Source: an uncultured bacterium (lineage in GTDB: Bacteria; Patescibacteriota; Minisyncoccia; CAIUEV01). Taken from it: a stretch of 64,000 bases of DNA. Shown in pieces: positions 5,452-54,817 of the stretch (position 1 is its first letter; each line of letters begins with the position of its first letter). The notes below the pieces were generated by a model. It was not told the DNA's origin. It was given only the letters and a program-made list of their open reading frames with translations, and did not search any database. The stretch lies in contig CALFZX010000010.1 in the NCBI GenBank assembly GCA_937952315.1, forward strand, positions 5,047 through 69,046. Reading direction: 5' to 3'. The position numbers and the translations under genes were made by a program.

Positions 5452-5459
5452 CGATTTTA

Positions 5460-6923: not shown

Positions 6924-6933
6924 CTTCGATTTT

Positions 6934-20855: not shown

Positions 20856-23800
20856 TTAAACTTTGATTTTTAATCTTTCTCTTTTTTCCTCCTCTTCACC
20901 GATTAATGTCGCAAAAAGTACCGGCACGATCATCAGAGTAAAAAATGAAGACAAGCTCAAGCCGAAAATAATTGTTCCGCCAAGCGCTTTCCAGAGTTCG
21001 TTGGAAAGAGTGATCGGAATGATACCGAAAATTGTGCAGATTGAGGTGATAAAGATAGCCTCCAACCTTGATTTCCCGGCATCAACAATAGCTTCTTGAA
21101 AAGGAATATTGCTCCCCAAATTCAAATTTATTTTATCAATTAAAATAATCGCATTTTTGACCACAATCCCGAATAGAGCCAAAATTCCGATCAAACCGGG
21201 AAAACTTAAATTGATTCGAAAAATCGCTAAACCGATGAAAACCCCGATTAGCGCTAGAGGGAAAGTAGCCAGAACGATTAAGGCTTTTTTGAAGGAGTTA
21301 AATTGAATAATCATTGTTGAAAAGATCAAAAGACCGGCCACAATCATAGCTTTAAGAATTGATATCACCGACTCCGCATTCTGTTCGTTCTCTCCTCCGT
21401 AAACAATCTCGTAACCGGTCGGTAAAGTGTACTGCTCCTTCAGTTTTTTCTGAAAATCGGCTAGAACTTGATTCGGTCGCGTTTTCCCGCTGACTCCGGC
21501 CGTTAGGGAAACGGTTCGTTTCTGATCGGTTCGGGTGATGGTCTCTACCGAAGGCTTAAGCTCTACTTTCGCTATATCCTTTAGAAAAATTGCTGTTCCG
21601 GTCGGGCTTAAAATTTGCAAATTTTGCAAAGACTCCAAATCGGGCACCGCTCTTTTGTCAAAACGAGCCACGATTTTTATCTCCTTGTTATCTCTGATTA
21701 TTTTGCTCACTTCCATCTCTGAGACGGCCATTCGCAAAAAAGAAGAAACGGCCGGAATACTCAAGCCGGAGACCTTCAGTCTTTCTCGATCAATCAAAAA
21801 AGTATATTCAGCCGGTGCTTCTTTCAAGGAAATATCTTCGTTGATAACCCCGTCAATTTGGCTGAGAATTCTCTTTAGATCATTTGCCACCTTGTCTAAG
21901 ACTTGAAGATCTTCACCCTCGATTCTCGCCTCAAAAGCCGAGCCGGAAGGTGGCCCACCGCTCGGAGATTCGACTGTTATTTCCGCGTTTTTAATGCTTT
22001 TTAAATCGTTTCGAATCTTATCCGCCAAATCGTAAGAAGTAATCTCGCGACTGTTTTTATCAATTAAATTCATTGTCACAGAAGCTAAATTGGAGGAGGA
22101 GCTTCCCATTCCATCCCCTCCGCCTTGGCCGACCAAAGTTGAAAATTTTTCTATTTCCGGATATTTTAACAATTGAGCCTCAACTTTTTCCACGATTTTA
22201 TTGGTTTCTTCCAGTTTCAAGCCGGACGGCGCTTCGAGATTAAGATAGAGGCTGTCCTCGTCGGAGACGGAAAAAAATTCGGTTGCCACAATGCCGGACG
22301 CCGGCAAAGAGGCTGAGCCGAGAAAGAGGAGCAGAGTTCCGATCAAAGCTCCCCAGCGCCTTTTTCTCGTGGCTAAGATATAGCGAAGTTGCTTTTCATA
22401 GAGCGGTAAAATTATATTTATATTTGTAATTCCGGAGAAAATTCTTTGCCAAAAAGTTTTTTTTCTTCCTTCCGCCCGATCGGCTAATTTTTCTTTGATC
22501 ATTTCCGGATTTTCCCACTCGAGATTGACTAATTTTTCACTAGCCATCGCTCTTTTTCTTCCTTCCGCCAGATACCATCTCAAAAAGACTACCGCTACTG
22601 TCAGAGCGATAAAACCGATTGAGAAGCCGGCAGTATTCCGCATTAAAACAGCCGTAGCGGTGCCCCCCAAAATAATTATCGAAAAAATTCCGAAGAAAAA
22701 GCTACGAGTAAATCTTATGCGCTCCAAGATAGCAGCCATCGGATGATTTATCATTAAAGCGATCAACAGAGAGGCGGTCAATGTCACCGAGACAGTAATC
22801 GGGATCGATTTAATAAATTCTCCGATGATACCGGTTGCTAAGAGTAGGGGCAAAAAGGCCCAAACTGTTGTCAAAGTGGTCGTTACTAAAACCCATTTGA
22901 AGTCGCGCAACACTAAAATTACCGCCTGCTCCGGTGTAAATTTACCGGTTTTCAAATATTGTTTAGTCGCCGAAACAACAACAATAGCGTCATCAACGAG
23001 CAAGCCGAGCGATAACAGCAATGAAAAAATCGAAAGGAAATTTAAGCTTATCCCCGCCAATTCCATCACTCCAAAACTAATAAAAAAAGTCAGGGGAATG
23101 GCCATACCGGCCACAAAAGCCTCCTTGACACCAACCAATAGAATAAGCACCAACGAGACTAAAAATAAAGTTAGAAAAAAGTCGTGTGTCAGCTGATCGA
23201 AATCTTCTTTAATCATTTCAGACATGTCGGTCGTATAGGCGTATTCCATGCCTTCCGGAAAATTACCGCTCATCGTCTCGATTTTTTGTTTAGCCTCATC
23301 AATCGTTTTGAGAATCGATCCGCCGGTTTTTTTTATTAAGCTGATAGAAACCGCGTTTTTCGGATCTTCTCCTCCGGTGGAGAATCGTGAATAGACTGTC
23401 TTTTCAATCGCTTTTTCGCGGACATCCGCCAAGTCTTTCAAATAAACAATTGCCCCGTTTTCCGTTGAAATAATCGGTAAATTCTTGATCTGATCGGCAT
23501 TCACAAGCCGAGCATCGGATTTAATGGCATAATTATATTTTTCACCGGAAAAACTACCGGCCGGCATAAGTAAATTACCGGAAGCGATTATTTGATTAAC
23601 CTGTTCGGCGGAGATTTTGAAACTTTCCAGCTTTTCCGGATTATAAGCGACTTCGATCTCTCTTTCCTCCCCGCCTGAAACTTTAACTTCCCGCACGCCA
23701 GCAATCTTTTCCAGTTCATCTTGAAGTTCTTCAGCTTTTTGTCTCAGCGTAAAACCATCATATCTACCGGCCAATTCGATATTGAAAATCGGACGATCGT

Positions 23801-24308
23801 CAAAAGAAATCTCGTTCACCGACGAATCCCCCGCCTCTTCCGGTAATTCTCGTTGAATCGAGTCAACCTCGTCTTTCAGTCGCCTGATCGAGTCTTCAAG
23901 GTCCTCTCCCGCTTCAAACTCAACTACCAACGAGGATGTTGAGTTGGAAGAATAGGATGTGATCTTGTCGATACCTTTAAGACCGGAAACGGCCGTTTCT
24001 ATTTTTTTAGTGATTAGCTCTTCTACATCGGAAGGAGATGCTCCCGGAAGCACGGTAAAAACAGTAGCGATCGGTATTTTTACTTCCGGGTTAGATTCTC
24101 TAGGCAAACTGATAAAGGAATAGATTCCCCAGAGAGCGGAAAGCATTATCAGCAGCATTACTACTCGAAAATTGGACACAAAAAAACTCAACCAAGACTT
24201 TTTCAGTTCCGGATCCCATTTCAATTTTTGTAAATAAAGCAAATCTGAAGATTCAAAATCTTTACTATTGGGACTTTTTTTGCCAAAAATTCTATCTTTC
24301 CAGCTCAT
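20856..24308 (-). CDS. Efflux RND transporter permease (AcrB/HAE-like)
   Basis: 1150 aa with 12 transmembrane helices in a 1+5/1+5 layout and two large extracytoplasmic loops. Confidence 0.85.
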   Translation of the reverse strand: MSWKDRIFGKKSPNSKDFESSDLLYLQKLKWDPELKKSWLSFFVSNFRVVMLLIMLSALWGIYSFISLPRESNPEVKIPIATVFTVLPGASPSDVEELITKKIETAVSGLKGIDKITSYSSNSTSSLVVEFEAGEDLEDSIRRLKDEVDSIQRELPEEAGDSSVNEISFDDRPIFNIELAGRYDGFTLRQKAEELQDELEKIAGVREVKVSGGEEREIEVAYNPEKLESFKISAEQVNQIIASGNLLMPAGSFSGEKYNYAIKSDARLVNADQIKNLPIISTENGAIVYLKDLADVREKAIEKTVYSRFSTGGEDPKNAVSISLIKKTGGSILKTIDEAKQKIETMSGNFPEGMEYAYTTDMSEMIKEDFDQLTHDFFLTLFLVSLVLILLVGVKEAFVAGMAIPLTFFISFGVMELAGISLNFLSIFSLLLSLGLLVDDAIVVVSATKQYLKTGKFTPEQAVILVLRDFKWVLVTTTLTTVWAFLPLLLATGIIGEFIKSIPITVSVTLTASLLIALMINHPMAAILERIRFTRSFFFGIFSIIILGGTATAVLMRNTAGFSIGFIALTVAVVFLRWYLAEGRKRAMASEKLVNLEWENPEMIKEKLADRAEGRKKTFWQRIFSGITNINIILPLYEKQLRYILATRKRRWGALIGTLLLFLGSASLPASGIVATEFFSVSDEDSLYLNLEAPSGLKLEETNKIVEKVEAQLLKYPEIEKFSTLVGQGGGDGMGSSSSNLASVTMNLIDKNSREITSYDLADKIRNDLKSIKNAEITVESPSGGPPSGSAFEARIEGEDLQVLDKVANDLKRILSQIDGVINEDISLKEAPAEYTFLIDRERLKVSGLSIPAVSSFLRMAVSEMEVSKIIRDNKEIKIVARFDKRAVPDLESLQNLQILSPTGTAIFLKDIAKVELKPSVETITRTDQKRTVSLTAGVSGKTRPNQVLADFQKKLKEQYTLPTGYEIVYGGENEQNAESVISILKAMIVAGLLIFSTMIIQFNSFKKALIVLATFPLALIGVFIGLAIFRINLSFPGLIGILALFGIVVKNAIILIDKINLNLGSNIPFQEAIVDAGKSRLEAIFITSICTIFGIIPITLSNELWKALGGTIIFGLSLSSFFTLMIVPVLFATLIGEEEEKRERLKIKV

Positions 24309-25539
24309 CTCCTTCGTTTAAATATTTATTACCTTCCACCACCACTTCTCTATCCTCCGGCAAATCAATTTTTACTCGAGCTTTTTCTCCTTCAATTTCT
24401 TCTATTTCGACAACGATTTTTTTTGCTTTACCGTCTTCAGCAATGAAGATATAATTTTCGTTTTGATCGACCGTAATAACAGAAAGAGGAATAAGGAAGA
24501 TGTTTTTCTCCTGAATAATTTCTTTTTTTGGCACTTTTATATTTACTAAAGTGCCGGGAATCAATTCTGAATAACCCTTTGGGATTTCCGCTTCCACCAA
24601 AAACCGACGAGAGGCATCGTCTGCAGAAGGAGCAACGGCACTGATTTGCCCCTCCAAATCACGATTTTGATTTGTTTTAACCGTAATTTTTGTTCCTTTG
24701 TTTAGATGATTCAGCTCATCTTCACTCACAAAAAAAGTAATTTTTATGGTTTCTCGATCGGCGATGGTCAGCAAAGCTTGCCCGGGAGAAACATATTCTT
24801 TTTCTTCAACCATTTTAGCTGTCACTACTCCGTCGAATGTCGCGACCGGAGAAGCGCTTTCCTTTAGGCTCTTTAGCGTAAGACCGGCACTTTTTTCCTG
24901 CAATTGAGCCACTTCTTTTTGCATTTTACCCGCTTTAAGTTGAGAATTTAGATTTTTTTCCAAACTTTTGATTTGTTGATTCAATAATTCAACTTTATCC
25001 GCCTCACCGTCTGCCTCGGCCTGCTTTTTGGAGAGCTTCAAATATTTTAAATCGCTTTCCGTTGATTTTTTAAGATTTTTGTACGCTCGTTCCGCCGATT
25101 CGGTTGCCTGCTTAGCTTGTTCCAGACCCAATTCGGCCTGCTTGATGGATGTTGAATCAATGCCCTCGCCATAAGCACCTCTGTCTCTAACTTCTTCGAT
25201 TTGTAAAAGCTTGTCCCCGACAGAAACTTCGTCGCCCAAATCGAAATTAAGCTCCGTAATCGTGCCATTTGTGGACGCAACTATATTAGTTTCCGATTCG
25301 GCTACCACTTGCCCCAAATAATTGATTTCCGAAGCGGAGGATTTAAAATCGATTAGTTTTTTTAATTCGGCTTTTTTTGGAATGACTTCTTCCGCCTGCA
25401 CCGGTGTTTTTGATCCAAGCCATTGTTTTATTGTCGGCGCCAAAAAGCTGGACAAGCTGAATATTAAGGCCAGAAAAGCTCCCACGACCAAAAACTTATC
25501 CGTGGCTCTGAACGATCTTTTTCCTTTTCTAGATTGCAT
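24292..25539 (-). CDS. Efflux RND periplasmic adaptor (membrane fusion protein, HlyD-like)
   Basis: N-terminal transmembrane helix, long coiled-coil hairpin, beta-barrel C-terminus. Overlaps the RND gene by 17 nt. Confidence 0.75.
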   Translation of the reverse strand: MQSRKGKRSFRATDKFLVVGAFLALIFSLSSFLAPTIKQWLGSKTPVQAEEVIPKKAELKKLIDFKSSASEINYLGQVVAESETNIVASTNGTITELNFDLGDEVSVGDKLLQIEEVRDRGAYGEGIDSTSIKQAELGLEQAKQATESAERAYKNLKKSTESDLKYLKLSKKQAEADGEADKVELLNQQIKSLEKNLNSQLKAGKMQKEVAQLQEKSAGLTLKSLKESASPVATFDGVVTAKMVEEKEYVSPGQALLTIADRETIKITFFVSEDELNHLNKGTKITVKTNQNRDLEGQISAVAPSADDASRRFLVEAEIPKGYSELIPGTLVNIKVPKKEIIQEKNIFLIPLSVITVDQNENYIFIAEDGKAKKIVVEIEEIEGEKARVKIDLPEDREVVVEGNKYLNEGDELER

Positions 25540-27921: not shown

Positions 27922-30900
27922 ATGGCTTTTTCAAAAAAAATCAGCTCGACAGGAAGAGAAGAATTCCAGGAGATCACTCTTAGAGACACAACCAGACGGT
28001 TAAGTCGCATTTCCGAGGAGGAGCAAGCGGCCATCAAAGCGGCCGGTTTGGGTTTACCCTATCTTGATTTGAATATTTTTCCCGTAGGCACTGAAACTAT
28101 TAGCACTTTGCCGGAGGAAGTTTCGCGCTTCGGACAGTTGGTTGTTATTCAAAAAGCGGGACGAGACTTAAAAGTCGGCGTCGTTGAACCGAAAGATCCA
28201 AAAACACAGGAAGTGCTCGAAAAAATGGAAAAAGATGAAGGCTACAATTCTAGAATTTACATTATTTCTAAAACTAGCCTAGAAAGAGCTTTGGATCGCT
28301 ACAAACAGGCGAATCTCTCGACTTCGCTTGAAGAAATGATGCTAACGCTGTCCGGTAAAGACTTGGAAAAATTTGAAAACGACATTAAAGAACTGGTTGA
28401 CCTCAAAAAAAGAATTCGAGAGTTACCCACCACGGAAGTTTTGAATGTAATTATCGCCGGCGCTATCAAATTGGAAGCGAGCGATGTTCACACAGAACCG
28501 CAAAAGGAAGATGTTCGAATCCGCTATCGTTTAGACGGTGTGCTTCACGATATTGTCCACATTCCCTATAATTTCTATCCCTATGTCCTTTCTCGCGTTA
28601 AGATGCTTTCCGGCTTGAAATTAAATATTCGAGACCGAGCTCAGGATGGTCGTTTTACTATTAAAACTAATTCTTCCGAAATTGATGTAAGAGTTTCCAT
28701 CCTGCCGGGTAATTATGGTGAAAATGTGGTGATGAGGTTGCTTAATCAAGATTCAGTTGGCTTAAAATTGGAGGATTTGGGTTTGCGAGGTCGCGCCTTT
28801 GATCAGTTGATTAGCCAGCTAAACAAGCCCAATGGTATGATCCTAAATACCGGACCGACCGGATCGGGAAAAACAACAACGCTTTATGCCTGCCTTATGC
28901 GCATTAACAGTCCGGATACGAAAATTATTACGATTGAAGACCCGATCGAGTACCGTCTGCCCGGTATCTCGCAAACACAGGTGCACAAAGAAAAAGGCTA
29001 TGATTTTTCTAACGGTTTGCGCTCAATTGTCCGTCAAGACCCGGACGCTATTCTGGTGGGAGAAATCCGAGATGAGGAAACGGGGGATATTGCGGTTCAC
29101 GCCGCTCTGACCGGTCATTTGGTTTTTTCCACTTTGCACACGAATTCAGCTTCCGGCGCTGTTCCTCGTTTGATTGACTTGGGTATTCGACCGACCTTGA
29201 TTGCTCCTTCCGTTAATTGTGTCATTGCTCAAAGATTGGTGCGAAAACTATGCCCTTATTGCAAAGAAGAGTATGTACCCGCCAAAGAAACACTGGAAAG
29301 TATGGGTCGTTTTCTCTCGATTATTTCGCCTAAGGCGGGAGTGGAAATTCCTAAAAATATTACTACTCTTTTTCGAGCCAAAGGTTGTCCTCGCTGTAAG
29401 GGTATCGGTTATAAAGGACAAATGGGCATTTTTGAAGTTTTTGAGATCAACAAGGAAACGGAAAAATTAGTTTTGGAGATGGCGCCGGCCACCGATCTCC
29501 TGGCGGCGGCGATGGAATCCGGTATGATTACCATGCTTCAAGACGGAATTTTAAAAGCCTCGGAAGGCATCACTTCAATGGACGAAGTGGAAAGAACGAC
29601 GGGCGCCGGCCAGTATCTGCAGGAGGTTTATGAGAAAATCATGACCCAACTTCTCTCCTTGCAATTGAAAATAGACAAAAAACAGATCGGGGAAACGCTT
29701 GAATGCGGTTTTGACGCTCAAAAAATGGCATCACTGATCCAAAAGGCGAGCAATAAGGAAATCCTCAATTATGTGGTCGCGGGCGGATTGGCCTTCGATG
29801 CGGGCGACATTCATATGGAACCGCAGGGAGATCTGATCAAAATTCGTTATCGTATTGACGGTATTTTGGAGGACATAACGGATATTAAGGCTCAGGACTA
29901 TTTACCAATTTTATCGCAGATCAAGCTACTTTCAGGTTTTAAAACCGATTCTCACGAGGCGGTCCAGGACAGTCGTTTCGGCATCGCTTTAGAAATGCAA
30001 ATCAACGACATTGCCGACACTAAAATCGATGTCAGAGTTTCAATCATTACGGGCGGTTACGGAGAGACGGTAGTGTTGAGATTGCTTCATAAATCGGCTC
30101 GCGCTTTAGAGGTGGAGAAAATCGGTTTCAGACCGCAATTATTGGAGAAATTATTGCGAGAAATTGAAAAACCGAACGGCATTATTCTGAATACCGGACC
30201 GACCGGATCGGGAAAAACAACGACGCTATATTCCTTGCTTAATCGTCTGAACAAACCGGAAGTTAAAATTATCACCGTAGAAGATCCGATAGAATATCGT
30301 TTGGCGGGGATTCTCCAGACCCAAGTTTCCACGGAGGAAGGTTATGATTTCGCCAACGCTTTAAAGGCACTTCTGCGTCAAAATCCGGATATAATGATGA
30401 TTGGAGAAATTCGCGATGAGGAAACGGCTAAAATAGCCATTCAAGCTTCTCTAACCGGGCATTTGGTGCTTTCCACTTTGCACACTAACAGCGCGGTAGC
30501 TTCTATTCAAAGGTTGATCAATATGAATATTGATCCTACCGATATCGCCACTTCCACTAACGCTATGATGGCGCAGAGACTGCTCCGAAAGCTTTGCCCT
30601 CATTGTCGAAAAGAGGTGTTACCGAGTGATCAAGACAAACGCAAACTTGAGGAGGTGCTAGCCACCGTCAGCAAATCTTCCGGCGTCGAAGTGCCTTCAA
30701 AAATTGAAAAATTGTTTGAGCCGGTCGGTTGCGAAAAATGTAAGAATCTCGGCTATTCCGGTCGAATCGCTGTGGCGGAGATAATGGCAATGAGTCCGAC
30801 ACTTGAAGAGATGGTCTCCCGTTTTATGATCACTTCGGAGATAGAACGACAGGCGATTAGTGAAGGGATGCTGACGATGACTCAAGATGCGGCGATTCGC

Positions 30901-30954
30901 GTGGTGAACGGCGAAACAAGTATCGCCGAAGCGGCTCGATCGACGGAGCTTTAA
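27922..30954 (+). CDS. Tandem-fused double PilB/GspE-type secretion ATPase (two complete T2SS/T4P ATPase modules in one 1010-aa polypeptide)
   Basis: Each half carries Walker A 'LNTGPTGSGKTTTLY', Asp box, Walker B 'GEIRDEET', His box 'TGHLV(F/L)STLHTNSA' and a tetracysteine zinc motif (CPYC...CPRC in the first half, CPHC...CEKC in the second). Confidence 0.85.
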   Translation: MAFSKKISSTGREEFQEITLRDTTRRLSRISEEEQAAIKAAGLGLPYLDLNIFPVGTETISTLPEEVSRFGQLVVIQKAGRDLKVGVVEPKDPKTQEVLEKMEKDEGYNSRIYIISKTSLERALDRYKQANLSTSLEEMMLTLSGKDLEKFENDIKELVDLKKRIRELPTTEVLNVIIAGAIKLEASDVHTEPQKEDVRIRYRLDGVLHDIVHIPYNFYPYVLSRVKMLSGLKLNIRDRAQDGRFTIKTNSSEIDVRVSILPGNYGENVVMRLLNQDSVGLKLEDLGLRGRAFDQLISQLNKPNGMILNTGPTGSGKTTTLYACLMRINSPDTKIITIEDPIEYRLPGISQTQVHKEKGYDFSNGLRSIVRQDPDAILVGEIRDEETGDIAVHAALTGHLVFSTLHTNSASGAVPRLIDLGIRPTLIAPSVNCVIAQRLVRKLCPYCKEEYVPAKETLESMGRFLSIISPKAGVEIPKNITTLFRAKGCPRCKGIGYKGQMGIFEVFEINKETEKLVLEMAPATDLLAAAMESGMITMLQDGILKASEGITSMDEVERTTGAGQYLQEVYEKIMTQLLSLQLKIDKKQIGETLECGFDAQKMASLIQKASNKEILNYVVAGGLAFDAGDIHMEPQGDLIKIRYRIDGILEDITDIKAQDYLPILSQIKLLSGFKTDSHEAVQDSRFGIALEMQINDIADTKIDVRVSIITGGYGETVVLRLLHKSARALEVEKIGFRPQLLEKLLREIEKPNGIILNTGPTGSGKTTTLYSLLNRLNKPEVKIITVEDPIEYRLAGILQTQVSTEEGYDFANALKALLRQNPDIMMIGEIRDEETAKIAIQASLTGHLVLSTLHTNSAVASIQRLINMNIDPTDIATSTNAMMAQRLLRKLCPHCRKEVLPSDQDKRKLEEVLATVSKSSGVEVPSKIEKLFEPVGCEKCKNLGYSGRIAVAEIMAMSPTLEEMVSRFMITSEIERQAISEGMLTMTQDAAIRVVNGETSIAEAARSTEL

Positions 30955-30996: not shown

Positions 30997-32781
30997 ATGT
31001 TTATCAGCGACAAACAATTAAAAGGATTTTTACTGGAATCGGAAATCGTTCCCGCTTCTTTGTTGGAGGAAGCTTCTCTGGAGGCGGAAGATACCAAAAT
31101 AAAACTCGGCACCGTTCTGATGGAAAAAGGTCTGATTCAGGAAGAGCAGCTAAGAAAAACTTATGCTTACTTGCTGGGGATACCCTTTGTCAATCTTGAA
31201 AATCAGTATGTTCCCAAGGAAGTTTTGACAATTATTCCCGAGCCTATTGCTCGCAAACACAACATTGTAGCTTTCGAAAAAGAAGGAACAAAAATTAAAG
31301 TGGCAATGCTTGATCCGGAAGATCTTCAAACGATTGATTTTATTCGCAAGAAGACCCAAAGCAAAATTCTTCCCTGTCTGACTTCGGAAAAATCAATTAA
31401 ACATATTCTGACCCAATATCAAAAGTCTCTCAAAGCCGAATTTGGCGAAATAATCAACGAAAATGTCAAGTTTGCTTCAATCGCCGACAGGGCGAAAAAT
31501 CCGGTTAGGGACGATAAAAATTCGATCGGCAAAGAGATTGATCTTCTCAAAAAAAGAGCGGAGGAACTACCGGTAATCAAAATTGTCGATGTTCTGTTGA
31601 AGCACGCAATTTTACAGCAGGCCAGCGATATTCACATTGAACCGGAGGAAAAAGAAGTAGTGGTGCGTTATCGCATTGACGGTCTTCTGCACGATGTTAT
31701 GTTTTTGCCCAAAGAGGTTTTACCGGCCATCATCGCTCGAATAAAGGTTTTGGCCAATTTAAAACTAGATGAACATCGATTACCTCAAGATGGTCGTTTT
31801 AAGATCGAGAATAGCGATTATAAGTTCTCTTTTCGTGTTTCAATTTTGCCCATAATGGACGGAGAAAAAATCGTGATGAGATTGCTTAATGAATCGTCCA
31901 AGGGGCTAACTTTGGAACAGTTAGGCTTTAGAAATCGAGCTTTGGAGGCACTCCAAAAAAGTGTGCATAAATCGCACGGAATGATTTTAGTGACCGGACC
32001 AACCGGATCGGGAAAAACGACTACTCTTTACACGGTAATGGACATTCTCAATACCAACCAAGTCAATATTAGCACTGTCGAAGATCCGATTGAATATCGA
32101 ATGCCCCGAATCAATCAAACTCAAATTAATGCCAAGATAGGGCTAACTTTTGCAGCCGGTTTAAGGGCCCTTCTGCGTCAAGATCCGGATATTATCATGG
32201 TAGGAGAAATTCGAGATGAAGAGACAATGCATATTGCCATTAATGCCGCTATGACCGGGCATTTGGTGCTTTCAACCTTGCACACCAACAGTGCCTCCGC
32301 TACAATGCCTCGCTTGTTGGATATGGGGGCGGAACCTTTCTTGTTGGCATCGACTCTCAATATCGTTATTGCTCAAAGATTGGTACGCAAGATTTGTTCG
32401 GAGTGCAAAGTGGAATATCGTCTCAAGAAGGAAGAAATTGAGGAGTTGGGACGAAAAGTCGACTTAGCGGACCTCTTGGAAGCAATGAAACGGGAGAAAA
32501 TAATTCGACCCGAAGTGGCAAGCTGGGAGGAAATTATTTTCTATCGCGGTCAAGGGTGCAAGCGATGTGCCGAATCAGGCTATAAGGGCCGAATGGGTAT
32601 TTACGAAGTAATAGAAATGGACGATGATATCAGGGCGCTGGTTTCGAAGCGAGCTGATGCGGCCGAAATTGAGGCTGTAGCCATTGAGAAAGGCGTTCTA
32701 ACTATGCTTCAGGACGGATTCATCAAGTCGGCGGAGGGTCTGACTACCATTGAGGAAGTGCTGAGGGTAACTCAGGAATAA
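30997..32781 (+). CDS. pilB: Type IV pilus assembly / type II secretion ATPase PilB/GspE
   Basis: GSPII_E N-terminal domain, Walker A 'GPTGSGKTTTLY', 'GEIRDEET', 'TGHLVLSTLHTNSA', and tetracysteine 'CSEC...CKRC'. 594 aa. Confidence 0.88.
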   Translation: MFISDKQLKGFLLESEIVPASLLEEASLEAEDTKIKLGTVLMEKGLIQEEQLRKTYAYLLGIPFVNLENQYVPKEVLTIIPEPIARKHNIVAFEKEGTKIKVAMLDPEDLQTIDFIRKKTQSKILPCLTSEKSIKHILTQYQKSLKAEFGEIINENVKFASIADRAKNPVRDDKNSIGKEIDLLKKRAEELPVIKIVDVLLKHAILQQASDIHIEPEEKEVVVRYRIDGLLHDVMFLPKEVLPAIIARIKVLANLKLDEHRLPQDGRFKIENSDYKFSFRVSILPIMDGEKIVMRLLNESSKGLTLEQLGFRNRALEALQKSVHKSHGMILVTGPTGSGKTTTLYTVMDILNTNQVNISTVEDPIEYRMPRINQTQINAKIGLTFAAGLRALLRQDPDIIMVGEIRDEETMHIAINAAMTGHLVLSTLHTNSASATMPRLLDMGAEPFLLASTLNIVIAQRLVRKICSECKVEYRLKKEEIEELGRKVDLADLLEAMKREKIIRPEVASWEEIIFYRGQGCKRCAESGYKGRMGIYEVIEMDDDIRALVSKRADAAEIEAVAIEKGVLTMLQDGFIKSAEGLTTIEEVLRVTQE

Positions 32782-38972: not shown

Positions 38973-41900
38973 ATGAAAAATTTCATTACCAACAGTGGGG
39001 CGGATAATCTTAAAGATCGCTTGCTGGAACTAATAAAAAGCAGCGAGGAGTTAAAATTTTTGGTTGGATTCTTCTATTTCTCTGGGATTAGAGAGCTTTA
39101 CGAAGGATTAAAAAAGAAGCCAGATACCGTCATTAAAGTTCTTGTTGGCCTAAATGTTGATCAATCCAATTTTGGCTTAATTGAATTTTCAGAGAAAGAA
39201 CAGTTATCTGATGAGGAAAAAACTTATAAATTCTTTGAATCGATAAAAAAATCTTTAAACAACGAAAGTCTTGATAACCAAGAATTTTATGAACAGGTAA
39301 GATTTTTTATTAAGCTTATTCAAAAAGACAAATTAATTATCCGTAAAACTTTTAAGCCTAATCACTCCAAACTTTATCTTTTTAAGTTGGATGAAAGTCA
39401 AGTAGGTCAAAGAAATTTATTTATTACAGGATCGAGTAATTTAACTAGTGCCGGTCTTTCTACCCAAAATGAATTCAATGTAGAAATAGGCGATTATGGT
39501 TTTGGGGATGCCGAGCAGTATTTTGAAGATCTTTGGCAAGAAGCAGTGAAGATTACCGAATTTGATGATCTTAAAAAGAAACTCGTTCAAGTTATTGAAG
39601 CAGAAACATTAGTAAAAGATATTTCACCATTTGAAGCTTTTTGTTTAGTTTTAAAAACATATCTTGATTCGTTCGAGCAAAAAGAAATTAGCGATTCTTT
39701 GATTAAAATTCTAGAAAAAAATAATTATAAGCCGTATCAATATCAGCTAGATGCGGTTAGGCAAGCATTGGCCATAATAGAAAAAAATAACGGAGTTATT
39801 GTAGCTGATGTAGTCGGTTTGGGAAAAACAATTATTGCCTGTGCCATAGCGAAACAGCTGAAAAAACGCGGGCTGATTGTTTGTCCCCCGGGTCTTATAG
39901 GTGATAGTAACAAAAATTCTGGCTGGAAAAAATATACGGAAGAATTTAGCCTTTATGATTGGGAAGTTCGTTCATCGGGTGATCTGGGGAAAATATTGGA
40001 GTTCGTTAAAAAGGCTACGGACATTGAAGTTATAATAGTTGATGAAGCTCACAGTTTTAGGAATCAAGACACGAAAAACTATGAGCTTCTGAAAAATATT
40101 TGTCGTGGAAAACAAGTGATTTTATTGACTGCCACCCCTTTTAACAACCGTCCAGCGGATATTTTAGCTCTTTTAAAACTTTTTATAACTCCTAAAAAAT
40201 CCTCGATTACATTAGAAAACAATTTGGTTGATCAATTCAAGGGTTTCAAAGGTATGTTTGAGAAGCTTGGGCATATTAGTAAATATTGGAGTTCCACTGA
40301 CGAATCTAAAAGAAATCAAGCTATAAATTATTATAAAGCATTATTCGAAGAAGAAACCGTTGATTTGAAAAAAGTCGCCGTAAGAGCCCGCTATCTTTCT
40401 AAGCAAATTAGAAATGTTATTGAGCCGGTAACAATAAGGCGTAATCGACTTGATTTGCAGAATAATCCTTATTACAAAAATGAAGTCAAAAATCTTGCAA
40501 AAGTGGAAGATCCCATAGAGTGGCCTTTCTATTTAACAGTTGAACAGTCCAGATTTTATGATGAAGTCATAAAAAATTATTTTGGCGAGCCAGAGGAGGG
40601 GGGAAGGTTTAAAGGCTCAATTTACAGACCCTTTGAATACGAAAAAGTTGTTGAGGACAAGATGGGTAAAGATGATAATCGTCAATTTATTCAGCAAAGA
40701 AATTTGTTTGACTTCATGAGACGATTGATCGTGAAACGATTTGAAAGTTCTTTTGGGTCATTTGCGCAAAGCATCAAAAACTTCAAGAAAATTACGGAAA
40801 GTAGTCGAGATTTTATTAAAAAAACCGGAGAGTATATTCTAGATAGAGCACTTTTGGAAAAAATCTATGAATTAGAGGCTGAAGATATTGAAAAATATCT
40901 CTTAGAGTATGAGGAAAAAATAAAAAAAGGTGAATACCCCAAAAACCACAAACGATATAAATTAAGTGCATTTAAGCACAAAAATGCTTTTCTTCGGGAC
41001 ATTGATTCGGATCTAAAATTGTTTGACGAAATATTATCAGAGCTAAACAGAATGAGTCTTATTAAAAATGATCCGAAAACCGCTTGCTTGTTGAAGCACC
41101 TGAAAGAAGAATTAAACAAAAAGCCACAAAAGGATGAGCCAAAAAGAAAAATTATTATTTTTTCTGAATATATTGATACTGTTAAGTATCTTGAAAAAGC
41201 ATTAGAGAAAACATTTGAAGACAGAATTTTAGTAGTAGACGGTGGCTTGTCAGTAGCAAAAATCAATCAAATCAACAAAAATTTTGACGCCTCATACAAT
41301 AGTAAAGAAAATAATTTTGATATTTTATTGACATCCGACAAAATTTCAGAGGGTTTTAACTTGAACAGAGCGGGAATGGTCATTAATTATGACATTCCAT
41401 GGAATCCGGTTCGGGTTATTCAGCGGCTTGGTCGTATCAATCGTATTAGTAAAAAAGTTTTTAATGAGCTTTATATTGTAAACTTCTTTCCGACTGAACA
41501 AGGTGCGACACTGGTTCAATCGCGTGAAATTGCTGCCAACAAAATGTTTTTAATCCACAATACTTTGGGCGAGGATTCAAAAATTTTTAATATCGACGAA
41601 GAACCAACCCCCGCAGGACTTTTTAACCGAATTCAACGAAATCCAGATCAGCAAGAAAAAGAAGGATTTTACACTAAAGCGTTAAACCACTATTTAAAAA
41701 TAAAGAAAGATAATCCGGAGTTGATTGCTGGCTTGAAGAAATATCCTCCAAGAATCAAGGTAGCAAAAATTTACACAGAAAATGAGCTTTTGGTTTTTTT
41801 CAAAAAGGGGAGACTCTATGTCAGTGGAGCAAAAACCGACACGGAAAAGATTGAAATATTTCAAGCAAGCCTTGAAGATGTCTTTGAAAAAATTGTTTGC

Positions 41901-42293
41901 CAATCGAACGAAAAAGCACAAAACTGGAACACAGATCAATTTTGGAAAGCATACGATTCTATCCAAACATACAAAAACTTTCGTTTAGGTTCCGTTAGCG
42001 AACAAAGTCTTGAGTCAAAAGCTCTTAATAGCCTCGATTCTCTTATTTTAAGCAACACAGAAAGTCTTATCCCCCACAAGGATTTTCTGAGAATGTTGAA
42101 AGAAGATATTTTATCATACGGTACATTGGCCGATTATACTTTGCGTCGAATTATCGGATTGAAAGAAAACTCTGTCAAAGAAATTAGGGCATTAAAAAAA
42201 GAATTAGGAGAGGACTATCTAGCCAAAGAAAAGGATCGCCAGAAAGAGCAGAAAAAAGAAGTTATTATCGCTATTAATAATCTTAAAAAATGA
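38973..42293 (+). CDS. SNF2-family helicase with N-terminal PLD-like nuclease domain
   Basis: N-terminal '...NHSKLYLFKLD...ITGSSNLT' matches the HxK...D...GSxN phospholipase-D motif. Helicase motifs: I 'VADVVGLGKTIIA', II 'IVDEAHSFRN', III 'LLTATPFNN', V/VI 'DIPWNPVRVIQRLGRINRIS'. Confidence 0.85.
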   Translation: MKNFITNSGADNLKDRLLELIKSSEELKFLVGFFYFSGIRELYEGLKKKPDTVIKVLVGLNVDQSNFGLIEFSEKEQLSDEEKTYKFFESIKKSLNNESLDNQEFYEQVRFFIKLIQKDKLIIRKTFKPNHSKLYLFKLDESQVGQRNLFITGSSNLTSAGLSTQNEFNVEIGDYGFGDAEQYFEDLWQEAVKITEFDDLKKKLVQVIEAETLVKDISPFEAFCLVLKTYLDSFEQKEISDSLIKILEKNNYKPYQYQLDAVRQALAIIEKNNGVIVADVVGLGKTIIACAIAKQLKKRGLIVCPPGLIGDSNKNSGWKKYTEEFSLYDWEVRSSGDLGKILEFVKKATDIEVIIVDEAHSFRNQDTKNYELLKNICRGKQVILLTATPFNNRPADILALLKLFITPKKSSITLENNLVDQFKGFKGMFEKLGHISKYWSSTDESKRNQAINYYKALFEEETVDLKKVAVRARYLSKQIRNVIEPVTIRRNRLDLQNNPYYKNEVKNLAKVEDPIEWPFYLTVEQSRFYDEVIKNYFGEPEEGGRFKGSIYRPFEYEKVVEDKMGKDDNRQFIQQRNLFDFMRRLIVKRFESSFGSFAQSIKNFKKITESSRDFIKKTGEYILDRALLEKIYELEAEDIEKYLLEYEEKIKKGEYPKNHKRYKLSAFKHKNAFLRDIDSDLKLFDEILSELNRMSLIKNDPKTACLLKHLKEELNKKPQKDEPKRKIIIFSEYIDTVKYLEKALEKTFEDRILVVDGGLSVAKINQINKNFDASYNSKENNFDILLTSDKISEGFNLNRAGMVINYDIPWNPVRVIQRLGRINRISKKVFNELYIVNFFPTEQGATLVQSREIAANKMFLIHNTLGEDSKIFNIDEEPTPAGLFNRIQRNPDQQEKEGFYTKALNHYLKIKKDNPELIAGLKKYPPRIKVAKIYTENELLVFFKKGRLYVSGAKTDTEKIEIFQASLEDVFEKIVCQSNEKAQNWNTDQFWKAYDSIQTYKNFRLGSVSEQSLESKALNSLDSLILSNTESLIPHKDFLRMLKEDILSYGTLADYTLRRIIGLKENSVKEIRALKKELGEDYLAKEKDRQKEQKKEVIIAINNLKK

Positions 42294-43972
42294 TTATTGA
42301 GGATTTAATGAAGATTTTAGCTCAACCTTCTGAAAATGAGAATGTTGAGTTTAAAGAAGCAAAGAATAGTTTTTCAGTACTAGGAAGGGACAATAAACGA
42401 GGTAAAAAAAATCGTAAGTCGATTTATGGCTATTCTGTTGCCATCGGCAACGAAGGTGGCGGACACTTAATCTTAGGAGTTAAGGACAAAATAAATAAAA
42501 AAACCGGTAGACGAGATATCGTTGGCACAAAGGCCATTCAAAACATAACCCAAACCAAAGAAAAATTGTACGAGGCTTTAGGAAGAAGAGTCGAAATTCA
42601 AACCCTAAAGACCCCGGAGGGGACTGTTCAGGTGATAGAAATACCAGCACATCCGGTAGGGGGAACTTTTAAATTTTACAATGTTCCATTGATGAGAAAT
42701 GGTGAAAATCTAGTTCCTATGGATGACGAGACTCTCAAAAAAATATTAACTGAAAATAGAGAAGACTTTTCTGCAAAATTAAATCTCTCAGCAAATTTTG
42801 ATGATTTAGACCCAAAATTACTTAGAATTTTAAAGGACAAGTATATCCTAAAATCGGGGAACAAGGAGCTAAAAGAAGTTTCTCATAAAGATATTTTGCA
42901 AAAATTACTTTTAGTAAGAAAAGATAAAATAACAAATGCTTGTTTGTTGTTAGTAGGAAAAGAAGATTCTTTGGCTAGATTAATTCCCAACCATGAAATA
43001 TTTTTAGAATGGCGTTCAGATGAGCACAAACTTGAATTTGAAAATCGCTACACAACAAGAAAAGCCTATCTATCAGTCGAAGCTGAAATATGGAAATATG
43101 TTAACGCTCGTAATGTTCGCGTTCCTTTTAAACAGGGCTTTTTTGAGATGGATATTTGGGCATACGATAAAAATAGCGTAAGAGAATCGGTTTTGAATGC
43201 TTTTGCTCACAGAGAATATGATAATCGGACAGAGCCTGTCTATGTGCGCTTGTCTCCGAGCAATTTGTCCATAAAAAGTCCCGGAGGTTTTGTCTCCGGT
43301 GTGTCAGTAGAAAATATTTTAGATGTTGAAGGAAAGTGGAGAAATCCATTTTTGATGGATGTACTGAGCCGCATAGGTTTAGTGGAAAGGGCTGGAATCG
43401 GACTGGATCGAATTTACAAAAAAACTATTTCTGATGGAAAGGGTTTGCCGAATTTTGACGGGACTGACAATGATCAAGTTATTTTAAATATTCCCGCCAT
43501 TGTTAAAGATCCCGGCTTTATTTATTATTTAGAAAAAATTAATCAAAAAAACCAGCTTTTTTCATCAACAAAGGATTTTATCGAGTTGGAAAAAATAAGA
43601 GGAACCGGAATCCCTGAGGATAAGAATAGACTAAAATATTTTCTGAAAAACAATATTATAGAGAAAATTAATCATGGCAGGGGTACCAGGTATATCCTAG
43701 CAAAGAATTTTTATGAATTTATTGAGGGTAAAGGCGAATACACAAGAAAAAAATGGCTTAGCAAAGAACAGCAGAAAGAAGTGCTTTTAAATTATTTTAT
43801 TCAGCATAAAGAAGGCAGAATGTCGGACTTCAAGGAGCTTTTTGAGGATAAGTTGAATAAAATTCAAATTAATATTTTACTAAACAAACTCAGAGACGAA
43901 GAAATGATTTATTTCGACGGTAAGGAGAGATCAAGCAAAGCATACTGGCGCTTAAGGAAAAATACAGAGTAA
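42290..43972 (+). CDS. AlbA_2/Schlafen-like putative DNA-binding ATP-binding protein (divergent-AAA / HATPase_c_4-type regulator)
   Basis: N-terminal 'ENVEFKEAK...YSVAIGNEGGGHLILGVKD' matches the AlbA_2 signature. Its start overlaps the upstream stop as ATGA. Confidence 0.6.
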   Translation: MIIEDLMKILAQPSENENVEFKEAKNSFSVLGRDNKRGKKNRKSIYGYSVAIGNEGGGHLILGVKDKINKKTGRRDIVGTKAIQNITQTKEKLYEALGRRVEIQTLKTPEGTVQVIEIPAHPVGGTFKFYNVPLMRNGENLVPMDDETLKKILTENREDFSAKLNLSANFDDLDPKLLRILKDKYILKSGNKELKEVSHKDILQKLLLVRKDKITNACLLLVGKEDSLARLIPNHEIFLEWRSDEHKLEFENRYTTRKAYLSVEAEIWKYVNARNVRVPFKQGFFEMDIWAYDKNSVRESVLNAFAHREYDNRTEPVYVRLSPSNLSIKSPGGFVSGVSVENILDVEGKWRNPFLMDVLSRIGLVERAGIGLDRIYKKTISDGKGLPNFDGTDNDQVILNIPAIVKDPGFIYYLEKINQKNQLFSSTKDFIELEKIRGTGIPEDKNRLKYFLKNNIIEKINHGRGTRYILAKNFYEFIEGKGEYTRKKWLSKEQQKEVLLNYFIQHKEGRMSDFKELFEDKLNKIQINILLNKLRDEEMIYFDGKERSSKAYWRLRKNTE

Positions 43973-44075
43973 CTGTGTTTTTTCGAATAATTTTAATTAT
44001 TTTGGCTTAATAAAGCCAAATGATCAATAACCTAAAATACAGACCAAATACAGTTTTAAAATTAATTAAGAATCA

Positions 44076-47000
44076 ATGAGCGAATCCAGGCAAATTCTAG
44101 AAACTATAATTAATGATTTTTCCGTTGATAAATTTAGCCGGTTTTTTCGGGAAAAAAATCGCAATTTTGTTGTGCGAGAAGAAAATTACACTCGTTACGA
44201 TGATGATAATTTTAAGGATGGATTGAAAATCGGAGAAATAAATTTTTCTGAAATTGAGAAAATTATTGTTTGCTCTTTTAAAGTCAAAAATAGTTTATCT
44301 GAACGATCGGGCAAAAGAGCCCAATATGAAAAAGCTAAAAACATATTAAAATCAAACGAAAATCGCATCTTTTCTGCCGGTATTTTTATTTTTTATGATA
44401 AAGATGGCCACTTCCGCTTTTCTCTTGTCTATCCTGAGAGCATAGGCACAAAAAGACAGTGGAGTCACTTTAAGCGATTTACATATTTTGTTAATAAGGA
44501 ACTAACCAACAAAACTTTTTTGAAGCAGATTGGGGAGAAAAAGATTGAATCCGTTGATGAAATCAAAGAAGCTTTCTCAATCTCCGCGGTTACAAACTTG
44601 TTCTATGATGATTTTTTCAAGATATACGATACGATTATTCAGGAAACAAAAAAAATCAATGATATAGATGACGACAACTTATCGAGAGAATTCGTTCTTC
44701 TTTTTGCCATAAGAACTATTTTTCTCGGCTTTATCCAAAAGAGAAAATGGCTAGGTGGTGACGAAAAATTTATTGAAAATTTTTATAGAGAGTATTCAAG
44801 CTCAAACAAAAAGAACGAATTTTATTCAAACTGGCTCTGTCCTTTATTTTTTGAAGCGCTGAATTCAAGTCCCGGTCATAAAGTTGAGTACGGAAAAAAC
44901 AATTTTTCAAAAGAAACCGAACTGAAATTGCAAATGGCTCCTTTTTTGAATGGCGGGCTTTTTAAGGAAAAAAGAGGCTATGACAATAACGGTTGGATTA
45001 TTCCGGACGAACAGATAAAATCTTTTTTTGAATTTCTTTTTTCGCACAGCTTTACGATAGAAGAAAATGCTCTTGACGATGAGGATCTACAGCTTAATCC
45101 GGAGTTCTTGGGAATTATTTTTGAAAGACTTGTCAACAAAGCTGATGGAGCAGTCTATACACAAAGAATGGAAGTTGATATAATGTGTCGATGGAGCCTA
45201 ATCAAATGGTTAGAAAAAAATCTCGATTCATCCATTAGCAAAAAAAATCTTTATGAACTTTTTTTTAGGGAAAGCGGGGAGGATGAAGATGAGAAAAAAG
45301 GAAGTTTCTCAAAAAAGGAGGCGATGATGATTCTTGAAAAACTGGAGCAACTTTCTATTTGTGATCCGGCGGCGGGATCGGGAGCTTTTCTGGTTGGAAT
45401 GATGCAAGTTTTAGATGAAGTCGAACAATCTTTAAAGGAGCGTTACGGATTAAATGGGAGAAATGTTTTTGAAAGAAAAAAACAAATTATTAAAAACTCT
45501 CTTTACGGTGTCGAAGCCAAAGAATGGGCGGTTTGGATCTGCCAACTAAGGCTTTGGCTTTCTTTGTTTATCGATACGCCCGAAGAAATGAAAAATTCAA
45601 TGGAAGCAATTTTGCCGAGTTTAGATTTCAAGGTTCGAAGAGGCGATTCTTTGGTTCAAAGAGTCGGTTCAAAGAGCTTTCCGGTCGCGGGTAGAAATTT
45701 AAGTTTGAGCACGAATAACAAAATAAAAATAACAAAACTCAGAAAATATAAAATCGATTATTTCGACAATAAAATCAAGCTGCTAAAAAATGATTTCGAT
45801 GTCTGCGCTCACCGCGAATTATCAATCTATGAAAGTATTATTGATGAAGAAATCAAGACAAAAAAAGATGAAATTAAAAAAGAGAAAAATATAAAAATAT
45901 CTGAGACAATGACGCTGCTGCCCTCTTTAGGCTATCTGCAAGAACAACAACAAGCCACTCTTCAATTGGATAATAAAGAAAAAATAGAAAGATTAGAAAA
46001 GGAAATTAAAGACTTACTAGAACAAAAAGAATTATTAAAAAAAGGCAAACCATTGGTTTGGAACATAGAATTCGCTGATATTTTTTGGGGCGATAAGAAA
46101 GGCTTTGATATTGTTATCGGGAACCCTCCCTATGTTCGTCAGGAATCAATTGAAGATCCGATGGGAAAAGTTAAAGATAAAAAAGAGTATAAAAAATATC
46201 TTCAAGAGATGGTACGGCTTGATTTCCCCAATGATTTTCCACCAAAAAAGAAAATCAACGCCCAATCGGATCTTTATACTTATTTTTATATTCGCGGATT
46301 AAAAATTCTTAATTCTCAGGGAGTTCACGCCTTCATCTGCTCCAATTCTTGGTTGGATGTCGGCTACGGAACTTGGCTTCAAGAGTTCTTGCTTAAACGC
46401 TGCCCAGTTGATTTAATTATAGACAATCACGCCAAGCGTAGTTTTGGTGCCGCCGATGTGAACACAATTATTTCGATTATCCATGCTCCTCAAAAAAAAG
46501 TGGATGAAAATCATTTGGTAAAGTTCACGGCCTTCAAAAAACCTTTTGAAAAGGTTATTTTTACGAATAATCTTTTAGAAATAGAAGAGGCTAAGCAAGT
46601 CTTGAACAACGAAAATTTTCGAGTCTATCCGATTTCAATCAAAGATTTGAAGGAGGCGGGAACGGAATATGAAGATAAAACATTGGTTAAGACGGGAAAA
46701 TACGTCGGCGACAAATGGGGCGGTAAATATCTCCGCGCCCCTGATATTTTCTTTACGATTTTGGAAAAAGGAAAGGATAAATTAGTAAAATTAAGGGATG
46801 TGGCGGACGTTCGTTTTGGCATTAAGACTGGTGCCAATGATTTTTTTTATTTGACGAAATCCAAAGCTAAAGAATGGGGAATTGAGGAGGAATTTTTAAA
46901 GCCGGTCATCAAGAGTCCGAGAGAGTGCAAAAGTATTTTAGTCAATCCGAAGGATTTGAAATATAAAATTTTTATGTGTAACAAAAGCAAAGAAGAGCTC

Positions 47001-54806: not shown

Positions 54807-54817
54807 TTAAACTAAAA

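Follow-up and report, generated by a model that had tools for sequence, protein, structure and literature searches.

The open reading frame at positions 27922-30954 of the 64-kb stretch of DNA analysed here (the window) is a real, strongly conserved gene carried by uncultivated Moranbacteria/Parcubacteria, and its product joins two PilB-type ATPase modules in one chain. This protein is probably a lineage-specific form of the type IV pilus extension ATPase PilB with two modules, and its likeliest assembly would be a trimer in which six modules alternate around a single ring.

Architecture of the tandem protein

The gene begins with ATG and is read through without an internal stop, and Pfam T2SSE (PF00437) matches its product twice (summed E = 1e-224), as expected from the initial annotation, which had seen here an in-frame fusion of two PilB-type units. 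The order of domains is N1, N2D-1, CTD-1, tether, N2D-2 and CTD-2, and the features referred to below are as follows:

27922-30954, + strand: two-module PilB-type ATPase, whole gene (1010 aa)
27922-28314, + strand: N-terminal region, aa 1-131, containing the only N1 (MshEN/GSPII-N) domain (Pfam, AF2)
28315-28413, + strand: flexible N1-N2 linker, aa 132-164 (pLDDT <50 at 132-162)
28414-28785, + strand: N2D-1, aa 165-288, of canonical sequence (RYRxDG, SRxK and QDGRF motifs)
28786-29607, + strand: CTD-1, ATPase core 1, aa 289-562 (motifs, Foldseek)
28852-28875, + strand: Walker A of module 1, GPTGSGKT from aa 311, with Lys317 (motif scan, relatives)
29062-29064, + strand: Walker B catalytic Glu381 (GEIRD) of module 1, invariant
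29251-29397, + strand: tetracysteine zinc motif of module 1 (C444, C447, C489, C492)
29608-29754, + strand: inter-module tether, aa 563-611 (length conservation, selection)
29755-30129, + strand: N2D-2, aa 612-736, a diverged yet conserved second N2D
30130-30951, + strand: CTD-2, ATPase core 2, aa 737-1010 (motifs, Foldseek)
30196-30219, + strand: Walker A of module 2, GPTGSGKT from aa 759, with Lys765 (motif scan, relatives)
30406-30408, + strand: Walker B catalytic Glu829 (GEIRD) of module 2, invariant
30595-30741, + strand: tetracysteine zinc motif of module 2 (C892, C895, C937, C940)
30997-32781, + strand: single-module pilB, 594 aa, a cluster-type paralogue that is not part of the fusion

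The N1 domain (MshEN PF05157 match at aa 43-130, E = 2.8e-7 in Pfam; an alpha/beta domain at aa 57-125 in the AF2 model) occurs once per chain, ahead of module 1, while module 2 is preceded by the tether. The earlier description of two complete PilB/GspE proteins therefore stands as far as two ATPase units with full motif sets are concerned but is overstated for the second unit, which consists of N2D and CTD and has no N1. The two halves align with each other along their full length (403-407 positions, 47% identity, E = 4e-141). Either half is ~43% identical to the product of the neighbouring pilB. Near the junction, neither Met574 nor Met602 has a convincing ribosome-binding site at the proper spacing for an internal start.

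Both halves had been credited with tetracysteines and a Walker B glutamate, and this proved true well beyond the one sequence: K317/K765, E381/E829, the His boxes (aa 395-409 in module 1 and 843-857 in module 2) and all eight cysteines are invariant across 74 relatives. The Asp box is present in both modules as well. Relatives at 40-47% identity retain the Walker A lysine, the Walker B glutamate and the His box in both halves, and a few distant relatives have lost some of the zinc cysteines. With the catalytic motifs kept in both modules, no clade supports a degenerate pseudo-ATPase half, and both modules are predicted from their motifs to hydrolyse ATP.

The fold points the same way. Each module superposes on the solved PilB/PilF cores of T. 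thermophilus PilF and Geobacter PilB (TM 0.9, Foldseek), and the bilobed N2D + CTD fold is modelled by AF2 at pLDDT 80.6, with Foldseek TM 0.87-0.91 to chains of 5IT5, 5OIU and 5TSH. PilB/GspE models (TIGR02538, TIGR02533) score the tandem protein at 883-892 bits, against 339 bits, summed over two modules, for pilT_fam (TIGR01420). All of its best families and structures are of the PilB/GspE/PilF/PilT/VirB11 type, and it departs from the canonical pattern of one ATPase core per chain, each tandem chain having two. We also considered a fusion of PilB with PilT, that is, of extension with retraction, which is ruled out by the module 2 tetracysteine and by identity at the PilB level: PilT and PilU are ~350-aa N2D + CTD proteins with neither tetracysteine nor N1, whereas both tandem modules carry the tetracysteine.

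At the same time, the two modules are not equivalent. When canonical columns are taken as those with conservation of 90% or more among stand-alone PilBs (n = 76), module 1 keeps 76 of 76 and module 2 is changed at six, five of them in N2D-2, which bears out the suggestion that the fused halves could specialise. The changes in N2D-2 are S to G628, R to Q666, G to S684 and P to T710, along with an insertion of 7-9 aa at about aa 690-700; in CTD-2, RQDPD has become RQNPD (N821), adjoining Walker B. N2D-2 is 38% identical to the single-module PilBs found in the same genomic slot (described below), compared with 47% for N2D-1, and its conservation inside the tandem family is 61%. Module 2 also evolves slightly faster than module 1. 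By these comparisons module 1 has stayed canonical, and module 2, chiefly N2D-2, has moved to a different but conserved consensus.

Recurrence, selection and origin

We collected 244 full-length two-module relatives (40-97% identity) from NCBI, ENA, JGI and Logan assemblies, some of them on contigs of 1.2-1.27 Mb. The search for fused versus split versions, proposed at the outset, returned these fused proteins together with single-module PilBs in the equivalent slot of other Patescibacteria. The identical 1010-aa protein is found on at least three contigs, and a 97% relative on eight contigs of matching gene order. All 74 relatives compared have a tether of exactly 50 aa, and 201 of 209 have 317-318 aa between the module 1 Walker A and the N2D-2 motif; within the tether, a conserved helix (564-578) is followed by ~17 unconserved residues. 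A scan of GTDB genomes with the generic patterns GPTGSGKTT and ITxEDPxEY yielded outgroups and synteny loci; tandem proteins were 1/80 among the matches listed, a figure that is no gauge of prevalence.

Comparison with the 97% relative gives pN 0.023 versus pS 0.70 over the whole gene (dN/dS ~0.012), with dN/dS of 0.005-0.013 in four regions where synonymous sites are unsaturated and of ~0.01 in N2D-1, N2D-2 and CTD-1. Synonymous sites are saturated in both linkers and CTD-2 (pS >0.77), with pN of at most 0.09; for CTD-2 pN is 0.029, and for the tether pN is 0.030 versus pS 0.87, indicating purifying selection. Could a chimeric contig, a frameshift or the loss of a stop codon have made one gene out of two adjacent pilB genes? 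The chance of such an assembly or annotation artefact is, in our judgement, negligible: the same junction, with its fixed tether length, recurs in all 244 proteins of independent assemblies, the identical protein was assembled more than once, and purifying selection runs across the junction. Repeat collapse of the tandem halves is impossible because they are only 47% identical. In practice the recurrence in independent assemblies settles the question against mis-assembly.

Judging from sequence and synteny, the tandem gene arose by internal tandem duplication of the N2D + CTD unit in an orphan PilB lineage. Most tandem family members occupy a TsaE-(DHH)-ATPase-RuvB slot, adjoining ruvB and not pilus genes, and ~12 other patescibacterial lineages among the matches listed have a single-module PilB in the corresponding TsaE-(DHH)-X-RuvB slot; it is the presence of a single-module PilB in the same slot that points to an internal duplication of that orphan PilB. 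These slot PilBs are also, among the matches listed, the monomers most similar to module 1. Identities by type are 69% for N-N, 65% for C-C, 50% for N-C, 45% for N-monomer and 42% for C-monomer, and the N half is closer than the C half for 92 of 94 stand-alone PilBs. Because bootstrap support in a neighbour-joining tree of the modules is weak (monophyly of C halves 62%, of N halves 23%), the argument for this origin is built on the identity patterns and the synteny. The same TsaE-(DHH)-X-RuvB slot also holds the three-module protein P0011 and P0128; a search with P0011 found no second three-module protein, which leaves it a singleton on one contig.

The single-module pilB next door begins downstream after a gap of 43 nt with no terminator-like site, an adjacency found in close relatives only. 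Its own closest relatives lie in PilB-PilC...pilin...PilM clusters, and no pilC (T2SSF), pilM or pilin (N_methyl) gene is present within the 64-kb window. Derivation of the second half from this neighbouring lineage was rejected, since module 2 shares 50% identity with module 1 and only 46% with the neighbour, and it is also countered by the neighbour's membership of the PilC/PilM-cluster group of PilBs.

Possible assembly of the motor

In the assembly that we favour, three tandem chains would close into a single ring of six modules, types 1 and 2 alternating, to give a covalent trimer-of-dimers with three N1 domains in all. We favour it because the tether has a fixed length, because an N2D is kept in both modules, and because of a 6:3 ATPase:platform model: in the trimeric model of PulF, Cyto1 and Cyto2 form an alternating ring and each binds one N2D of the ATPase hexamer (PMC10790770). 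TadB/TadC has likewise been proposed to be a trimer of heterodimers (PMC10790770). More speculatively, N2D-1 and N2D-2 might each engage one of the Cyto1 and Cyto2 domains alternating round a trimeric PilC, and motor and platform would then pair 3:3 instead of 6:3. Against the alternating ring it can be said that the cycle of PilB hexamers is believed to be C2-symmetric; unlike modules would face each other across the ring, so that a simple C2 cycle would need both types to behave equivalently. Nor does the 64-kb window encode a PilC that could be the platform partner. The stronger version of this proposal, a natural, covalently locked three-fold motor with each N2D type tuned to one PilC cytoplasmic domain, is tentative, and we think it rather less likely to be right than wrong. 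If it is right, P0011 and P0128, the latter a putative independent re-duplication, would mean that Patescibacteria have repeatedly tried dividing the hexamer covalently as 2x3 and 3x2, and the family would serve, as it stands, for mutating defined positions of the ring and for directly testing how C2 or C3 ATPase cycles turn the platform, which at present is approached through models alone.

The main competitor of the alternating ring is a stacked double ring, in which six chains would form a hexameric ring of module 1 with a ring of module 2 on top, one driving the platform and the other serving to regulate or to add power. Stacking is the usual result of tandem duplication in P-loop ring ATPases (KaiC, p97/Cdc48, ClpB, EccC), and it would agree with full catalytic motifs in both modules and with AF2 models that show no confident in-plane docking (the full-length model has pTM 0.45, and a CTD-1-tether-N2D-2 sub-construct, modelled with 17 sequences, reached pTM 0.43 and pLDDT 67, a low confidence at which no intramolecular docking of N2D-2 on CTD-1 can be called confident). 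However, in PilB-family hexamers N2D contacts the neighbouring CTD and the platform protein (PMC10790770), and the N2Ds of a second ring would be out of the platform's reach, yet N2D-2 is under strong purifying selection. There is, moreover, only one N1 per chain, and the three-module P0011 (2 x 3 = 6), although known from one contig only, suits an in-plane ring better, all of which makes stacking unlikely in our view. Less likely again is an alternating ring in which just one module is catalytic, the other being regulatory or structural with little turnover, as for the alpha subunit of F1-ATPase. Replacement of the conserved N2D arginine (R225 equivalent) by E/N/Q in module 2 of the main family, the RQNPD change beside the module 2 Walker B and the slightly faster evolution of module 2 would all fit such a division, but the Walker A lysine, Walker B glutamate, Asp box and His box are present in both modules in every clade examined, and the low dN/dS of both N2Ds and CTD-1, with the low pN of CTD-2, also speaks against it.

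We give still less weight to mixed hexamers that would combine the tandem protein with the single-module PilB next door, say two monomers with two tandem chains, which seem very improbable. In favour of them, the two genes are 39-43 nt apart here and in the 97% relative, with no terminator-like site between them, but a 79% relative lacks the adjacency, as do all members farther removed, in which ruvB follows, and the neighbour comes from a different PilB lineage, normally encoded with pilC, pilM and pilins.

A tandem PilB amounts to a natural 'linked dimer', whereas the motor is normally a ring of six separate subunits. How PilB/GspE motors couple ATP hydrolysis to the platform is debated (platform dimer versus trimer, motor C2 versus C3), and with identical subunits a mutation at a single ring position needs engineered linked constructs. 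The tandem family has been retained over a long evolutionary time, with both engines intact by sequence, a fixed tether and a specifically altered N2D-2; a natural linked dimer of this kind would give mutational and structural studies a ring of defined, alternating positions, and it predicts the 3:3 motor:platform pairing. The lifestyle of Parcubacteria-group Patescibacteria is thought to be pilus-dependent, and these bacteria carry here a modified form of an orphan PilB paralogue that is itself widely conserved. In databases the tandem proteins are labelled only 'GspE/PulE family protein', and the architecture has consequently been overlooked.

Comparison with known systems

We found no member of the PilT/VirB11/GspE family with a tandem layout in the PDB, NCBIfam or the openly searchable literature, and no PDB chain spans both modules (best query-normalised TM-score, TMq, 0.36). 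Taken singly, the modules have the same N2D + CTD fold as Geobacter metallireducens PilB (5TSH/6OLJ), Vibrio GspE (4KSS) and Myxococcus PilB (3JC8), with ~41% identity to solved PilBs, and they share with canonical PilB/GspE the catalytic motifs and the tetracysteine; an N-terminal N1 of MshEN type heads the chain. Where these proteins have one ATPase module, the tandem chain has two, linked by a fixed 50-aa tether and served by a single N1, and its N2D-2 departs from the usual consensus and carries an insertion of 7-9 aa.

Other genomes, too, encode multiple PilB-type ATPases. Two separate extension motors are reported for Acinetobacter baylyi (PilB and TfpB) and for Saccharibacteria, with two T4P systems (PMC8213720, PMC12206443). 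There, as here with a cluster-type PilB and the tandem protein, a genome has more than one such ATPase, but those motors are separate single-module proteins, whereas the tandem modules are covalently joined and of one lineage.

Duplication within a chain also has precedents. KaiC, p97/Cdc48, ClpB/Hsp104 and EccC likewise acquired two to three P-loop modules per chain by duplication, often dividing the labour between them; however, KaiC (RecA-like), p97/ClpB (AAA+) and EccC (FtsK-like) belong to other branches and form stacked rings, and the best matches of the tandem protein lie outside those clades. In PilC/GspF, an internally duplicated trimer, and in the proposed TadB/TadC trimer of heterodimers, a duplicated unit likewise gives a 3 x 2 alternating ring of non-identical parts, but these are membrane proteins and the tandem protein is an ATPase. 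Thermus thermophilus PilF (6F8L, a 'long' PilB of ~900 aa) is among the best sequence and fold matches of the tandem protein and is also a PilB motor enlarged by internal duplication: PilF has multiplied the N-terminal GSPII/N1 domains and has one ATPase core, while the tandem protein has duplicated N2D + CTD and has a single N1.

Architecture of the tandem ATPase

The tandem gene is a single uninterrupted reading frame, free of internal stops and frameshifts as the initial annotation had stated, and Pfam finds two T2SSE stretches in its product (PF00437, summed E = 1e-224) with a single MshEN/N1 match at aa 43-130.

Elements of the tandem gene (amino acids of its protein) and the gene after it
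27922-30954, + strand: tandem ATPase ORF, 1010 codons
aa 311 and 759: Walker A GPTGSGKT, one per module
aa 381 and 829: Walker B Glu, within GEIRD
aa 395-409 and 843-857: His boxes
aa 444/489 and 892/937: CxxC pairs, one set per module
aa 563-611: tether, a conserved helix (FLEExYEKIMxQLL), then ~17 unconserved residues
30997-32781, + strand: single-module pilB, 43 nt downstream

The zinc CxxC motifs and Walker B Glu reported earlier for each half are indeed present, and the proposed alignment covers the halves from end to end, with 47% identity and E = 4e-141; each half is ~43% identical to pilB 30997-32781. The earlier description of two complete PilBs in one chain holds for the doubled motif sets and the matching halves but not for the second unit as a whole, which lacks N1 and consists of N2D+CTD alone after a 50-residue tether. 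The layout is N1 - N2D - CTD - tether - N2D' - CTD'.

Relatives, origin and gene neighbourhoods

The identical protein occurs on three or more contigs (e.g. ENA ERZ724098), and a 97% relative occurs on eight that come from other samples, in an unchanged NusA - tandem - pilB - FtsW - YebC order. Word-indexed searches (two) and an exhaustive HMMER search extended this to 244 full-length two-module proteins (40-97% identity) in independent assemblies of NCBI, ENA, JGI and Logan, in some cases on contigs as long as 1.2-1.27 Mb, so the fused form is indeed found in related genomes, where the initial annotation had suggested looking. Source names for the main group are Candidatus Moranbacteria/Moraniibacteriota, and for the 40-47% relatives Parcubacteria group or Candidatus Paceibacterota. 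The architecture is rare: among 15,799 representatives of 50%-identity clusters matching at E <= 1e-30, just 13 contain two modules at full length (740-1154 bits), and single-module PilBs all score below them, at 570 bits or less.

Against the 97% relative, pS is 0.70 (synonymous sites near saturation), pN 0.023 and whole-gene dN/dS ~0.012, with values of 0.005-0.013 for the N1 region, N2D-1, CTD-1 and N2D-2; the two linkers and CTD-2 have saturated synonymous sites and a pN of at most 0.09. The recurrence on these contigs, the 244 relatives and the dN/dS rule out an assembly artefact and show the gene to be real. Such protein identity at this pS (window 27922-30951 against positions 5001-8030 of the relative's locus, L089) points to exceptionally strong constraint, or to deep divergence of the two populations.

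N2D+CTD core, mean identity
among module 1s: 69%
among module 2s: 65%
between modules 1 and 2: 50%
module 1 to stand-alone PilBs: 45%
module 2 to stand-alone PilBs: 42%

In every main-family member each module is nearer to same-numbered modules elsewhere than to its own partner, which shows that the duplication is older than the divergence of the family; 92 of 94 stand-alone PilBs are nearer to module 1 than to module 2. Most tandem genes examined occupy a TsaE(-) - (DHH) - ATPase(+) - RuvB(+) slot, whole or its adjoining part; the relatives P0102, P0015 and P0023 and the locus L001 lie in or against it, as do the three-module P0011 and the variant P0128. In some twelve further lineages of Patescibacteria, including Paceibacterota and Doudna-, Nealson-, Staskawicz- and Wildermuthbacteria, this slot is filled by a single-module PilB, and these slot monomers are the stand-alone PilBs nearest module 1 (50-55%). 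The shared synteny and this proximity show the tandem gene to be orthologous to an orphan 'ruvB-slot' PilB and to have arisen by internal duplication of its N2D+CTD unit. In the window and close relatives it has been relocated, lying between nusA (before) and a second pilB (after); its neighbours differ again in a 79% relative.

That second pilB (30997-32781) is of a separate lineage, its nearest relatives (59-66% identity) standing in PilB - PilC ... pilin ... PilM clusters; here it is detached from the pilC, pilins and pilM of those clusters, and ftsW/rodA and yebC follow. No pilC, pilM or pilin genes were found anywhere within the 64-kb window, and the tandem gene is encoded apart from pilus genes. 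An AcrB-type RND transporter is also encoded, in a lineage thought to be without an outer membrane, as is a three-gene island that looks DISARM-like or type IIG-like. The minus-strand genes at 1667-8769 may belong to the type IV secretion/conjugation-like system that PMC12102498 describes for Patescibacteria.

Other features of the window
1667-3850, - strand: 727-aa ORF, no Pfam match
3860-4798, - strand: DHH/DHHA2 protein
4831-5451, - strand: bacterial-PH-domain (bPH_2) protein
5460-6923, - strand: SLT transglycosylase-domain protein
6934-8769, - strand: TrwB/VirD4-like coupling ATPase with treble-clef zinc finger
20856-25539, - strand: AcrB-type RND transporter (1150 aa) and HlyD-type adaptor
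38973-47594, + strand: defence-like island of an HKD/PLD + SNF2 helicase (PADLOC DrmD and 'HKD+Snf2', E ~1e-37), a Schlafen/AlbA_2 + HATPase_c_4 protein and a type IIG restriction-methylase / DrmMI-like protein (1172 aa)
51509-52807: second HlyD-like adaptor
52809-53546: ABC ATPase
53562-56059: two MacB/FtsX-type permeases

Module asymmetry and assembly

The modules are asymmetric: of the 76 columns in which stand-alone PilBs are at least 90% conserved, module 1 retains all, while module 2 has replaced six.

Replacements in module 2, and identity to slot monomers
S187 to G628, N2D-2
R225 to E/N/Q666, N2D-2
Q241 to K682, N2D-2
G243 to S684, N2D-2
P262 to L/T710, N2D-2
D373 to N821, CTD-2 (RQDPD to RQNPD)
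N2D-1 47%; N2D-2 38%; CTD-1 53%; CTD-2 49%

N2D-2 has thus diverged from the monomers and yet is 61% conserved within the tandem family, with a length-conserved insertion of 7-9 residues, which is the pattern expected of a domain with a newly acquired, constrained role, as opposed to decay. The tether is exactly 50 aa long in 74/74 aligned relatives, and Walker A-1 lies 317-318 aa from the first N2D-2 motif in 201 of 209 proteins, whereas the N-terminal region varies from 284 to 365 aa; fixed length with variable sequence argues for a geometric constraint linking both modules.

The PilB-family motor is a ring of six N2D+CTD units, in which the N2D packs against the CTD of the neighbouring unit. 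Most economically, three tandem chains would build one such ring with modules 1 and 2 alternating, three N1 domains and both module types active, N2D-2 being specialised, possibly for one of two PilC cytoplasmic domains. We infer both this arrangement of the ring and its pairing with PilC, and a single alternating six-module ring is the probable form. In PMC10790770, the PulF/PilC platform is modelled as a trimer with a ring of alternating Cyto1/Cyto2 domains, each binding one ATPase N2D (6:3), and an equivalent trimer of heterodimers is proposed for TadB/TadC.

Motif integrity in the 74-relative alignment is complete. None of the eight Cys varies, and in each half the Lys of Walker A, the Glu of Walker B, the Asp-box residues and both His-box histidines are invariant; the remotest two-module clades still retain GKT, GE[IV]RD and the His box in each half. 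By these residues both modules look catalytically competent, and it is improbable that the second is largely regulatory. Superposed on solved cores (T. thermophilus PilF/PilB, Geobacter PilB), each module of the AF2 model (pLDDT 80.6) gives TM 0.87-0.91, and no PDB chain spans both (best query-normalised TM-score, TMq, 0.36). The pTM is 0.45 for the full-length model and 0.43 for a CTD1-tether-N2D2 sub-construct (pLDDT 67). A stacked double ring, as in KaiC or p97, seems unlikely, and there is little chance of mixed assemblies with the neighbouring PilB.

P0011 (1460 aa; JGI contig Ga0248662_100121, L081 8001-12383) carries three PilB ATPase modules in a TsaE-DHH slot, as for tandem genes, and as a dimer would again make six. 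Its first module resembles module 1 (best match 70%), its last module 2 (61%), and its middle module is nearest to its own third (58%). A dedicated search for P0011 relatives gave no second three-module protein, and this form therefore stays an anecdote. In P0128 (L084 3226-6213, in the PolA-TsaE...RuvB slot of the tandem genes) the halves are 74% identical mutually and at most 50% to any other tandem protein; in P0129 the figures are 55% and at most 48%. Both patterns suggest independent re-duplication or intragenic gene conversion.

Comparison with known families

No description of a two-module PilB was found in the non-subscription full-text literature searched, or by targeted reading of the TFF-superfamily survey, the PulF paper, a 2024 PilB review and the CPR protein-family study. 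PDB matches include no solved structure with two such modules, and no NCBIfam model for the architecture was found. It is only the summed score of two modules that takes the tandem protein past the NCBIfam equivalog cut-offs for GspE and PilB, and such proteins carry generic database labels ('GspE/PulE family protein' or 'PilB'). Its motifs, zinc site and fold place the tandem protein in the PilB/GspE family, but the family has one core per chain and this protein has two. A conserved natural linked dimer should be useful, and somewhat surprising, to pilus-motor specialists; the enzyme itself is nonetheless well known, this form being a variant of its architecture, and the organisms are uncultivated.
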